In this document: positions 23,788 to 27,802 of the stretch, piece by piece | Layout of the letters: each line of letters opens with the position of its first letter | Numbering within the stretch: position 1 is the first letter of the stretch | NCBI RefSeq assembly: GCF_001677475.2 | Contig: NZ_CP015229.1 | Direction: 5' to 3' (one strand) | DNA: 64,000 nt | From: Escherichia coli | GTDB taxonomy: Bacteria; Pseudomonadota; Gammaproteobacteria; Enterobacterales; Enterobacteriaceae | Program-made: the position numbers and the translations under genes | Notes under the pieces: model-generated | Database searches by the model: none | What the model was told of the DNA's origin: nothing | What the model saw: the letters and a program-made list of their open reading frames with translations, nothing else

Positions 23788-24498
23788 TTAATCTCCTGTA
23801 CGGATAATTTCTTGTCGGAGTGAATAAGTTCCGGTAGGTAAATTACGTTCTACAATCACGCGCGGGCCAAGTTGCGTGTTCGGGGAAATAATTCGCCCAG
23901 GCAAAATAATAACTTGTACGCCAAGGCGTGAACGCTGCCCGATATAACAACCTAATTTATCGCATCCGGTAGCGAAAATTCCCTCTGGAGTTCGAACAGA
24001 CACGGGCTGTTCATCCAGACGATGATTACTGGTACGTACTTGTGCGCCTAAATATGCCTGGTTTTCAACTACCGAGTCGGCAATAAAACATTGCGGACCA
24101 ATCGTTGCTTCCGCTTCAATAACCGCATTTTTAATCTCGGTGGCAAAACCAATTTTTACGCCATTACTGATTATTGTGCCAGGACGAATAAACGCATAAT
24201 TACCTATCAGGCAGTTTGCGCCAATCACTACCGGACCCTGAATAACGGCACCATGACAAATACGGGTATTCGCGCCGATAACAACTTCACCTGCAGTTTC
24301 ATCAATAATTACCTGGTCTGCAATCTGAATATTTTTCTCTTTAACATTAAGCTTCAGATAGTTTTTCAGTTCCTGTGACAGAAGGTTGGGAATAAGCGGT
24401 TGACGCTTCCACCAGTGCGGAATAGCGGGTGGGTTTGTCGCGCTGAGGTTCGCGTCCAGTAAAAAAGGCAATAAGTCCATAAATAATCCAGATGGCAT
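23788..24498 (-). CDS. yaiX: hexapeptide-repeat (left-handed beta-helix) acyl/acetyltransferase; start uncertain because the longest ORF overlaps yaiP by 152 bp
   Basis: Repeated [LIV]-G-x-x-x-x hexapeptide motifs (VIGANTRI, VIGANCLIGNYAFIRPG, IGDN-like); single uninterrupted frame with no IS insertion. Confidence 0.8.
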   Translation of the reverse strand: MPSGLFMDLLPFLLDANLSATNPPAIPHWWKRQPLIPNLLSQELKNYLKLNVKEKNIQIADQVIIDETAGEVVIGANTRICHGAVIQGPVVIGANCLIGNYAFIRPGTIISNGVKIGFATEIKNAVIEAEATIGPQCFIADSVVENQAYLGAQVRTSNHRLDEQPVSVRTPEGIFATGCDKLGCYIGQRSRLGVQVIILPGRIISPNTQLGPRVIVERNLPTGTYSLRQEIIRTGD

Positions 24499-25543
24499 AA
24501 GCTAATAATACATACACAACGGAAAGCGGCGCTAAAGGCACCAACAACCAGCAACGATGAAACCAGGCGCTAAAAGCACCAATAACACAAACTACGCCGA
24601 CCCAGATAAGCGGAAACATTGCCAACACCACACCATGCGGCCCGGTGGTGATGAATTCATTAAACCAGGTAGTGAGATAAATCCCAACGCCATAAAGCAC
24701 AACCAACAGCATAGGAAATATACTGAAGATACCAAAGCGGCTAAATAAAAGTCTTTTATGCAGGCGCATACAGACCGCGTAGCCCACAATCCAACGCCGC
24801 CAGCGACGCCACTCCTCACGCGGGCTGTTGCATTCCTGTGGGTATACGATGCAGCGATTCGCCTGCCGAATACGGTAGCCGTTTGCCACTAATGTCCAGG
24901 TGAGATCAAGGTCTTCGACTTTAGTACGATCCGAGAAACCGAACTTACGCAATACATCAGTACGGAACATCCCGCAGGCACCGCTGATGATAAACGGTGC
25001 GCCGCCCAGGAGCTGCTGTAGCGTGCGCTTCATAACAATCATCGGCAACTTTACGGTCGCGCGGATGTGCGGTAACAGCCCCGCGCCTTTCAACGCAGTA
25101 GAGGGAATGCCGCCTACGGCATCAGCACCGCGCTCAATTTCTGCCAGCATATAGCCCATTCCGTCTTGATCGGGCGGAACATAGGTGTCGGCATCACTTA
25201 AAAAAACCTGGTCGCAGGTGGCGTAATTGAGGCCATTCATCAGCGCACCACCTTTACCGGTATTTTTTTGCGTGACGGCAACAAAGCGGTCGCCCCATTT
25301 GCGTTTGACTTTCGCCATGACCGCTTCGGTATTGTCCGTGGAGCCGTCGTTAACGCAAATTACCCGGCAAAAATAAGGGTTACGCAGTAGATTATCCAGT
25401 GACTGCGCCAGACACGGGCCTTCGTTATACGCAGGTATAATGGCGTCAATACAGCCTTTGTTTTGACTGGGTTTACGTCTTAGCGTACTTAAAAACCATA
25501 GCAACATTGCTATGGACATACAGATAAATATCCAGGTTTTCAT
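24347..25543 (-). CDS. yaiP: family-2 glycosyltransferase with N- and C-terminal transmembrane segments
   Basis: 398-aa ORF; GT2 signatures (IIPAYNEG, VNDGSTDNT, DAD); hydrophobic N-terminus and several C-terminal TM helices. Confidence 0.88.
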   Translation of the reverse strand: MKTWIFICMSIAMLLWFLSTLRRKPSQNKGCIDAIIPAYNEGPCLAQSLDNLLRNPYFCRVICVNDGSTDNTEAVMAKVKRKWGDRFVAVTQKNTGKGGALMNGLNYATCDQVFLSDADTYVPPDQDGMGYMLAEIERGADAVGGIPSTALKGAGLLPHIRATVKLPMIVMKRTLQQLLGGAPFIISGACGMFRTDVLRKFGFSDRTKVEDLDLTWTLVANGYRIRQANRCIVYPQECNSPREEWRRWRRWIVGYAVCMRLHKRLLFSRFGIFSIFPMLLVVLYGVGIYLTTWFNEFITTGPHGVVLAMFPLIWVGVVCVIGAFSAWFHRCWLLVPLAPLSVVYVLLAYAIWIIYGLIAFFTGREPQRDKPTRYSALVEASTAYSQPSVTGTEKLSEA

Positions 25544-25552
25544 GCAATTTGC

Positions 25553-26224
25553 TCAAAGAATCATTTTATGAATTACAAAGCCTTCACCCAGATCGCTATT
25601 GACCTGTTGCCCGCGAAATTGTGCAACTGCACGCAGGCGATCATGACGCATATAATCACGTCGTTCCTGGCTTTTATGTTTTTTTAATGCAGCAAGTTTG
25701 ACTGTGAAATATTCTTCTTTAACGGATTCAAAAACCTGAGGCATAAATGAAAGCCAGGTACTTGGGGTTTCGTAGCCGAGAATTTGTGGAATAGTGCGGC
25801 AGGCAACCATTGAAGCTTGATAAACAGCGAGATGATCCTGATGGCGGTCGGCATCATGCATGGTATATACCCGCATGATTTCAACATCAGAAGGAATTTG
25901 ATTTTTAATGATGTCTTCCAGGGCGGAAATCATATCATTGAGCTGTAAATGCGCGCGGGTGTCAGCAAAATTAAGATGAATAGTTTGGTGGCACCCTAAT
26001 ATCTTTAGGGCGTTGCGAGATTCTTCATGGCGATCGATTATTCCATCTGTGCCAGAGTTGCCGGTAGTCATCACCACGGCTGCGATATAAATTCCTTTTT
26101 GCGCAAGACGAGCAAGCGATGCGCCACAGCCTAATTCTATATCGTCAGGATGTGCGCCAATAGCAAGGATACCCTTTCTTTTATTTGCCGAAGAAAGGAG
26201 GGCTGAATCTAAAACTTTATCCAC
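25553..26224 (-). CDS. yaiS: PIG-L/LmbE-family N-acetylglucosaminyl deacetylase
   Basis: 223-aa ORF with N-terminal AIGAHPDDIELGCG motif characteristic of LmbE-like deacetylases. Confidence 0.85.
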   Translation of the reverse strand: MDKVLDSALLSSANKRKGILAIGAHPDDIELGCGASLARLAQKGIYIAAVVMTTGNSGTDGIIDRHEESRNALKILGCHQTIHLNFADTRAHLQLNDMISALEDIIKNQIPSDVEIMRVYTMHDADRHQDHLAVYQASMVACRTIPQILGYETPSTWLSFMPQVFESVKEEYFTVKLAALKKHKSQERRDYMRHDRLRAVAQFRGQQVNSDLGEGFVIHKMIL

Positions 26225-26839
26225 TTAATGACACTCCATTTTATTTATTATACTACAAGCACAACGATGCACTCAGAGACGTAATCTCTGGCGCAGTCAG
26301 ATGCTAATTTATAAGTGTTAAATGTTGCTCATAACTGAAAAGCCAGGGCTTTCAGACCCGGGGGTTCGACTGGGTAATGTTTTTATGCAATTCATATGTT
26401 AAGTGTTTGTATGTTTGGTATGTATAGTTATTTTGTTTTATACATTGTATTTAGATGTGATTTAGTTTGTCAATTAATTGCATTTAAAAAATATGTTCTG
26501 TGAACAAGCATTGTTTATATACATTATGTGAATGTAATATGCGGGTGATTGAGAATGATACAGTGACATATGTAATGCGAATATAATAATTTTATTATAT
26601 GTATTGATATTGATAGAAATAGTGAAGTAATAAATCTCATAATATGGTTGTTTATGCATCACTAGAATGAAGCATAGTAATTTTCTCAATTGTTAGGGCA
26701 GGGTAATTGCATATTTAATCTTTCCTTTGCCACTTTTTCGCTAAGAATAAAATCATCTGTGCGATAACAACTAATTCTTTTAATGAATGTTTTTATTCCT
26801 GAATACTGCTCCCATAACAAGACAGGGGAGCAGACAATC

Positions 26840-27802
26840 ATGGCAATTTCTTCGCGTAACACACTTCTTGCCGCACTGGCATTCATCGCTTTTCAGGCAC
26901 AGGCGGTGAACGTCACTGTGGCGTATCAAACTTCAGCCGAACCGGCGAAAGTGGCTCAGGCCGACAACACCTTTGCTAAAGAGAGCGGGGCGAGCGTTGA
27001 CTGGCGTAAGTTTGACAGCGGAGCCAGCATCGTGCGGGCGCTGGCTTCTGGCGACGTGCAAATCGGCAACCTCGGTTCCAGCCCGTTAGCGGTTGCAGCC
27101 AGCCAACAGGTGCCGATTGAAGTCTTCTTGCTGGCGTCAAAACTGGGTAACTCCGAAGCGCTGGTGGTGAAGAAAACTATCAGCAAACCGGAAGATCTGA
27201 TTGGCAAGCGCATCGCCGTACCGTTTATCTCCACCACCCACTACAGCCTGCTGGCGGCGCTGAAACACTGGGGTATTAAACCCGGGCAAGTGGAGATTGT
27301 GAACCTGCAGCCGCCCGCGATTATCGCTGCATGGCAGCGGGGAGACATTGATGGTGCTTATGTCTGGGCACCGGCGGTTAACGCCCTGGAAAAAGACGGC
27401 AAGGTGCTGACCGATTCTGAACAGGTCGGGCAGTGGGGCGCGCCGACACTGGACGTCTGGGTGGTGCGCAAAGATTTTGCCGAGAAACATCCAGAGGTCG
27501 TGAAAGCGTTCGCCAAAAGCGCGATCGATGCTCAGCAACCGTACATTGCTAACCCAGACGCGTGGCTGAAACAGCCTGAAAACATCAGCAAACTGGCGCG
27601 GTTAAGCGGCGTGCCTGAAGGTGACGTTCCGGGGCTGGTGAAGGGGAATACCTATCTGACGCCGCAGCAGCAAACGGCAGAACTGACCGGACCGGTGAAC
27701 AAAGCGATCATCGACACCGCGCAGTTTTTGAAAGAGCAGGGCAAAGTCCCGGCTGTAGCGAACGATTACAGCCAGTACGTTACCTCGCGCTTCGTGCAAT
27801 AA
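26840..27802 (+). CDS. tauA: taurine ABC transporter periplasmic binding protein
   Basis: Start chosen at MAISSRNTLLAALAFIAFQAQA (signal peptide) giving 320 aa. Confidence 0.93.
   Translation: MAISSRNTLLAALAFIAFQAQAVNVTVAYQTSAEPAKVAQADNTFAKESGASVDWRKFDSGASIVRALASGDVQIGNLGSSPLAVAASQQVPIEVFLLASKLGNSEALVVKKTISKPEDLIGKRIAVPFISTTHYSLLAALKHWGIKPGQVEIVNLQPPAIIAAWQRGDIDGAYVWAPAVNALEKDGKVLTDSEQVGQWGAPTLDVWVVRKDFAEKHPEVVKAFAKSAIDAQQPYIANPDAWLKQPENISKLARLSGVPEGDVPGLVKGNTYLTPQQQTAELTGPVNKAIIDTAQFLKEQGKVPAVANDYSQYVTSRFVQ

Follow-up and report, generated by a model that had tools for sequence, protein, structure and literature searches.

The yaiS–tauA intergenic region of an Escherichia coli genome as a probable composite of the tauABCD promoter and the AT-rich edge of the yaiS cluster

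The tauABCD promoter of Escherichia coli K-12 is reportedly activated by Cbl and CysB during sulfate starvation. Cbl is said to protect positions -112 to -68 of the tau promoter, and CysB to bind several sites. A second system that bears on this locus is the fold-back inhibition of IS10, in which an RNA structure blocks the translation of read-through transcripts only and protects the transposase from outside transcription.

Promoter islands, described by Shavkunov, Panyukov, and Ozoline, are AT-rich and H-NS-bound segments with dense promoter-like signals that lie beside horizontally acquired genes, and they are defined by the density of PlatProm start points over at least 300 bp. The K-12 gap between yaiS and tauA is one of the 78 published islands (383994_309, U00096.2; PMC3661553, Table 1). 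It is H-NS-bound "according to all studies" by ChIP and is associated with genes predicted to be foreign by three methods (PMC3661553). The same table lists island 996773_328, adjoining the other Cbl-controlled operon ssuEADCB, and island 1332795_340, which is the region downstream of cysB (PMC3661553). Sulfur-starvation loci recur in the list. Three follow-up papers on promoter islands contain no mention of the yaiS–tauA locus. An RpoD SELEX study in K-12 found that the holoenzyme binds between yaiS and tauA, at a peak flagged H-NS, and assigned TTGACA-18-TACAAT as the promoter of yaiS and TTGAGA-16-TACAAT as that of tauA. All three features of this gap, namely its tauA promoter, its H-NS-bound promoter island, and its binding of RNA polymerase, are already published for K-12.

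In the window, which denotes the whole 64-kb stretch of DNA analysed here, yaiS (minus strand) and tauA (plus strand) diverge from the gap at 26225–26839 that is mapped in Table 1. The start codon of yaiS is a GTG at 26224–26222, and the ATG of tauA is at 26840. Pfam assigns yaiS to the PIG-L deacetylases and tauA to the ABC substrate-binding proteins, in agreement with the initial annotation, which had described a long AT-rich gap between divergent yaiS and tauA. The minus-strand ORF 25553–26224 is YaiS, a PIG-L family deacetylase, and behind it lie YaiP (family-2 glycosyltransferase) and YaiX (hexapeptide acyltransferase). On the plus strand, the taurine-binding protein TauA is followed by tauB and tauC in the same gene order as in K-12, which places the tauABCD operon directly downstream of the gap, as is the case for the Cbl/CysB-dependent promoter. 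The K-12 counterpart (NC_000913.3, 384617–385231) is of the same length and differs from the window gap at 4.6% of positions, and the DNA identity to K-12 is 98.7% for yaiS and 97.2% for tauA.

The flanking genes show several differences from K-12. The window carries an intact yaiS of 223 aa with a full PIG-L domain, and the K-12 gene is annotated at 185 aa because its codon 186 is an in-frame stop. On the plus strand, the small gene ykiC (39 aa, 25568–25687) runs antisense to the stretch of yaiS that K-12 does not translate, and a plus-strand Cappable-seq start at K-12 U00096.2 383338 (+) is antisense inside yaiS, downstream of ykiC. The hexapeptide acyltransferase gene yaiX (23788–24498, 236 aa) is uninterrupted in the window and is split by IS2 in K-12; the predicted yaiX ORF shares about 150 nt with yaiP.

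Table 1. Positions of the features mapped in the yaiS–tauA gap (window coordinates).
Feature	Position	Strand	Remarks
yaiS–tauA divergent intergenic region, whole	26225..26839	.	615 bp, 31.2% G+C; 95.4% identity to the K-12 gap
yaiS Shine-Dalgarno GGAG	26234..26237	-	9 nt before the GTG at 26224; invariant in four alleles
Candidate proximal yaiS -10, perfect TATAAT, no recognisable -35	26247..26252	-	Leader of about 16 nt; suggested by sequence
Perfect 6-bp palindrome CAGAGA-cgtaa-TCTCTG	26274..26290	.	Arms invariant in four alleles; the loop alone varies
G+C-richer islet with two hairpins and a T-run, terminator-like	26334..26375	+	Terminator scan; not conserved
Equivalent of K-12 promoter island 383994_309	26378..26686	.	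Coordinates transferred from the U00096.2 gap 383841-384455
Distal yaiS sigma-70 promoter in near-invariant core	26388..26492	-	-35 TTGACA 26473-26468; -10 TACAAT 26449-26444; predicted start near 26437
Promoter-like TTGAGA-16-TGTAAT toward tauA	26549..26576	+	K-12 -10 is TACAAT; not conserved as a promoter
Cbl-footprint-equivalent position (-112 to -68), putative	26702..26746	+	Reported footprint; most of the cross-genus block CCnTTGCCnnTTTTTnnCTAAnAA (26723-26748) lies within it
Second cross-genus block TAATTCnTTTA	26772..26782	+	About -42 to -32 of the start; overlaps the weak -35
tauA -10 AATACT	26802..26807	+	7 nt upstream of the start; also where yaiS-type/O157-type identity begins
Inverted repeat	26806..26833	+	CTGCTCCC 26806-26813, 12-nt loop, GGGAGCAG 26826-26833; 8-bp perfect stem
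tauA transcription start (A), 26-nt leader	26814	+	K-12 Cappable-seq start transferred

We consider it probable (about 0.85) that the gap is a composite region, in which the tauABCD sulfate-starvation promoter occupies about 140 bp and an H-NS-coated edge of the yaiS cluster the other 480 bp or so. The two parts of this divergent regulatory region would be of different origin. Its anatomy, its conservation, and the boundary of the island come from the present analysis, while the start site and the binding of RNA polymerase and H-NS come from the K-12 literature; by transfer from K-12, we infer the same start site and the same binding for the strain of the window.

The start of tauA is placed by the K-12 Cappable-seq table at U00096.2 384430(+); as the ATG is at 384456, the leader is 26 nt long. 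This is the only plus-strand start among the entries listed between 383338 and 388394 (U00096.2). Since K-12 and the window are identical over 26770–26839, the K-12 start corresponds to A26814, and the core promoter and the start position are thus as mapped in K-12. The Shine-Dalgarno sequence GGGGAG lies at 26825–26830. Loci of tauA were gathered from 80 species, and the upstream 220 bp were aligned for 29 taxa. From Escherichia to Cedecea, and less strongly in Pantoea, these 29 enterobacterial taxa share about 125 bp of conserved sequence upstream of tauA. The conserved blocks are CTAnCnnTTGCCGnTTTTTTTCTAAAAACG (26720–26749), TTTTAATTCCTTTATCAAA (26770–26788), the leader with GGGGAGCAGAC, and GAAATACTGC in the -10 region, which does not vary among 43 enterobacterial sequences. 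Klebsiella michiganensis and Enterobacter sp. JUb54 have a different sequence right upstream of the tauA Shine-Dalgarno, without the conserved GAAATACTGC, which suggests that the tauA promoter may be rearranged in these two.

With a start at 26814, the Cbl footprint would presumably fall on 26702–26746. Among four yaiS-type alleles there is a conservation peak over this segment that begins exactly at 26702. The window has the orthologous position, the 615-bp gap, and the start-site position of the K-12 promoter said to respond to Cbl and CysB under sulfate starvation; the two are identical from 26770 to the ATG, and the block of the putative activator site is conserved. In contrast, the footprint-equivalent segment of the window carries three substitutions relative to K-12, and the tauA promoter of O157:H7 and other genera shows no more than about 50% identity upstream of the -10. 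A comparison of the tau footprint with the K-12 ssuE upstream region gave a best match of 23/45, which equals the shuffle mean, and no Cbl motif was derived from it. The initial annotation had expected CysB/Cbl sites for tauABCD in the gap. The K-12 start 26 nt before the ATG and the conserved blocks are in line with such control, with the tauA control elements confined to 26702–26839, the last 140 bp or so. This segment would be the sulfate-starvation promoter of tauABCD, with a weak -35, the -10 AATACT, the start A26814, an unstructured 26-nt leader, and a strong Shine-Dalgarno. The site for the LysR-type activators Cbl and CysB would lie at about -112 to -66, where the exact contacts are putative.

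The inverted repeat over the tauA ribosome-binding site had been pointed out before at approximately the right coordinates, and its true arms are those in Table 1. The repeat folds at -14.5 kcal/mol (z = -4.9), and its right arm covers the Shine-Dalgarno. Its left arm, CTGCTCCC, covers positions -8 to -1 relative to the start (26814); since this arm lies upstream of the start site, the normal tauA mRNA is unable to form the hairpin. The native leader, 26814–26875, is predicted to be open (z = +1.1, open centroid). The repeat could accordingly serve translational control by folding only read-in transcripts begun within the AT-rich island and burying their Shine-Dalgarno, while the proper mRNA stays open. 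In support of such a role, any RNA that starts at or before 26806 is predicted to fold its Shine-Dalgarno into the stem, promoter-like sites directed toward tauA exist upstream, and the GCAGAC after the Shine-Dalgarno is conserved beyond what ribosome binding needs. Of 62 enterobacterial sequences, nearly all are also predicted to form a related CUGC...GCAG stem, with energies of -7 to -14.5 kcal/mol. However, covariation is absent, as 84.9% of cells are paired versus 85.6% in shuffles, with one double change and with the fifth pair unpaired in 35 of 43 sequences. Moreover, the K-12 Cappable-seq entries listed include no upstream plus-strand start. The arms are separately constrained, the left as the -10 and discriminator and the right as the Shine-Dalgarno. 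In a leader hairpin that sequesters the ribosome-binding site, both arms lie within the gene's own transcript and the pairing is kept by compensatory changes; neither is found here. The closest analogy is IS10 fold-back, as the tauA stem likewise has its left arm just outside the gene's own transcript and its right arm over the ribosome-binding site, but the tauA repeat shows no covariation and is not in a transposon. Translational control by this hairpin is therefore unlikely.

The boundary between the two parts of the composite region is seen in other lineages. O157:H7 matches the window only from about 26802 onward, and upstream of its tauA are genes for a response regulator, a sensor kinase, and a UhpC-like protein instead of the yaiS cluster. 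Citrobacter, Klebsiella, and Enterobacter have the O157:H7-type neighbour, with a gap of 230–340 bp and about 44% G+C. Between -38 and the ATG, identity of the window to O157 is 100%. Over -125 to -38 it falls to 52%, a stretch in which O157 and Citrobacter portucalensis are 87% identical. This break at about 26802, together with the 52% identity upstream of it, indicates that the yaiS-type island reaches the tauA -10 element. The K-12-type and O157-type promoters nevertheless share 41 of 87 positions in register versus 25 +/- 4 expected by chance, and the shared positions are concentrated in two motif blocks. On these comparisons, the K-12-type activator region appears to be a diverged or replaced version that keeps only the functional motifs. 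The remaining 480 bp or so would be the AT-rich edge of a horizontally acquired yaiS-yaiP-yaiX-yaiO polysaccharide-modification cluster. The association with horizontally acquired genes that is typical of promoter islands is found here, as the yaiS cluster is replaced in O157:H7 and in other genera.

Among 5426 complete E. coli genomes, 4254 carry at least 80% of the gap, in two allele classes with about 95% and about 85% identity, and the best full-length identity of the gap to any of the 5426 is 95.8%. The TauA of the window is 99% identical to that of "Escherichia sp. E1V33", whose upstream region is of the O157/albertii type. The window may therefore represent an Escherichia lineage that is unusual or mosaic.

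The composition of the gap sets it apart from the rest of the window, which has 51.8% G+C. It is the AT-richest 615-bp stretch of the 64 kb, and only 0.1% of 615-bp windows equal it, all of which overlap the gap. Its core at 26381–26700 has 25% G+C, and the plus strand of this core has 58 G versus 22 C. The many short A/T tracts that the initial annotation had noted are present, but not in excess over composition (12 runs of at least 4 versus 11.4 +/- 2.9 in shuffles). The curvature check that it had proposed gave an unremarkable result, with a mean of 18 degrees in the region versus 21 for the window by a wedge model; one local peak lies near 26674. The idea of intrinsic curvature was dropped on this average value and on the absence of A-tract phasing in the gap (AA/TT periodicity, p = 0.54). 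A repeat search of the gap gave only short repeats at chance level.

The expectation of nucleoid-protein binding holds for the K-12 orthologue, which H-NS occupies in all ChIP sets (PMC3661553). In the window gap, the high-affinity H-NS motif TCGATAAATT has one match with at most 2 mismatches (8/10), and the case for H-NS that can be made from the window's own letters is the AT-richness of the gap. Like the promoter islands, the gap core at 26378–26686 is AT-rich, at 25% G+C, and adjoins a gene cluster that other lineages replace. Unlike the diffuse signals of generic islands, it has one sharply conserved near-consensus promoter. A simple sigma-70 consensus scan of the window gap shows no excess over composition, with 4 promoter-like sites versus 3.8 +/- 1.9 expected. 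At 25–30% G+C, the second part of the composite region would be full of promoter-like hexamers and coated by H-NS, which would keep yaiS and spurious transcription silent.

This second part would also carry the promoter or promoters of yaiS, chiefly the near-consensus sigma-70 promoter at 26473..26444 (-). The promoter scan finds the SELEX-assigned TTGACA-18-TACAAT of yaiS at this position with 11/12 matches, within the best-conserved part of the gap, which supports the yaiS promoter that the initial annotation had predicted there. In the 105-bp core at 26388–26492, the four alleles compared (the window, K-12, strain FEX669, and E. whittamii, with divergence up to about 15%) agree in 87–97% of columns, versus 40–77% in the flanks. 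The promoter-sized pattern of this conservation argues for a real and selected yaiS promoter. The ROSE and Romero data sets list no start-site entry for the yaiS–tauA locus. Nearer to yaiS, the candidate TATAAT (26252..26247) sits within a conserved block at 26210–26255, and the palindrome CAGAGA-N5-TCTCTG may serve as an operator or, within a long yaiS leader, form a hairpin. Toward tauA, the TTGAGA-16-TGTAAT at 26549..26576 was rejected as a functional tauA promoter, as the key second-position A of its -10 is missing in three of the four alleles (the window and two others) and K-12 has no plus-strand Cappable-seq start there.

The AT-rich stretch could alternatively be neutral junk at an island junction, a target of insertion sequences with no regulatory role of its own. 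Alternative islands do occupy the site in different lineages, the two allele classes are about 15% apart, and several genomes have an IS1 inside the gap. BL21 (BL21-AI) has an IS1 in place of yaiX-yaiP-yaiS and of the gap as far as about 26733, which cuts into the putative Cbl site, and the regulation of the taurine operon in BL21 may be altered. The IS1 copies and this IS1-linked deletion show that the AT-rich DNA of the gap is also an insertion target. Yet conservation in the gap is strongly patterned, peaking at the yaiS start and the near-consensus promoter core on one side and at the putative Cbl site and the tauA leader on the other, and the K-12 region binds both RNA polymerase (RpoD SELEX) and H-NS (PMC3661553). 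A purely neutral stretch is thus improbable, more so than translational control by the hairpin.

None of the ORFs in the gap survives as a protein in all four alleles, in agreement with the initial annotation, which had seen no plausible ORF. All ORFs of at least 20 aa differ or break among the alleles except that at 26396–26503 (30–35 aa), which keeps its ATG in the four diverged alleles and spans the conserved core. However, it has no Shine-Dalgarno, its six substitutions comprise five non-synonymous and one synonymous, and its C-terminus is variable. Databases hold only sporadic automatic "hypothetical protein" calls for the gap ORFs, and the small ORFs were rejected as genes on their conservation pattern and this database status. 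K-12 RefSeq annotates nothing in the gap, yet annotates the small ykiC nearby. With regard to RNA genes, the gap has no Rfam family match at E <= 10, and ARAGORN finds no tRNA or tmRNA over 25500–27500. The plus-strand terminator-like hairpins with their T-run (26334–26385) are among the most variable segments of the gap, and FEX669 has lost the pairing of hairpin 2. The K-12 3'-end tables of Adams et al. show no RNA 3' end at the gap locus, and the plus-strand Cappable-seq entries listed give no start for these hairpins. An unannotated small RNA or small protein, for which these hairpins and the 35-aa ORF are the candidates, is thus very improbable: neither its structure nor its ORF is conserved as a gene would be, no RNA family matches, and the tables list no transcript ends. 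The small transcript or protein that would have spoken against the initial annotation was not found in Rfam, ARAGORN, ORF conservation, or the 3'-end tables.

The composite region and the inverted repeat can be joined in a further and doubtful reading, in which E. coli has two non-equivalent tauA control regions and the repeat acts as an insulator against read-in transcription from the island. The K-12/yaiS type would have been replaced or have diverged (52%) upstream of the -10 in H-NS-bound DNA, the O157 type would be the Citrobacter-like one (87%), and only two short motifs would remain in register. If the insulator is true, only transcripts from the Cbl-dependent start would be translated.

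The finding has little significance beyond correct annotation, and its added value is a base-level map that joins separate literatures on one sequence. The map confines the tauA elements to about 140 bp and places the yaiS promoter core under strong constraint. What lies upstream of the tauA -10 is markedly different from one E. coli lineage to another, and the sulfur-starvation control of taurine uptake could therefore be strain-dependent.
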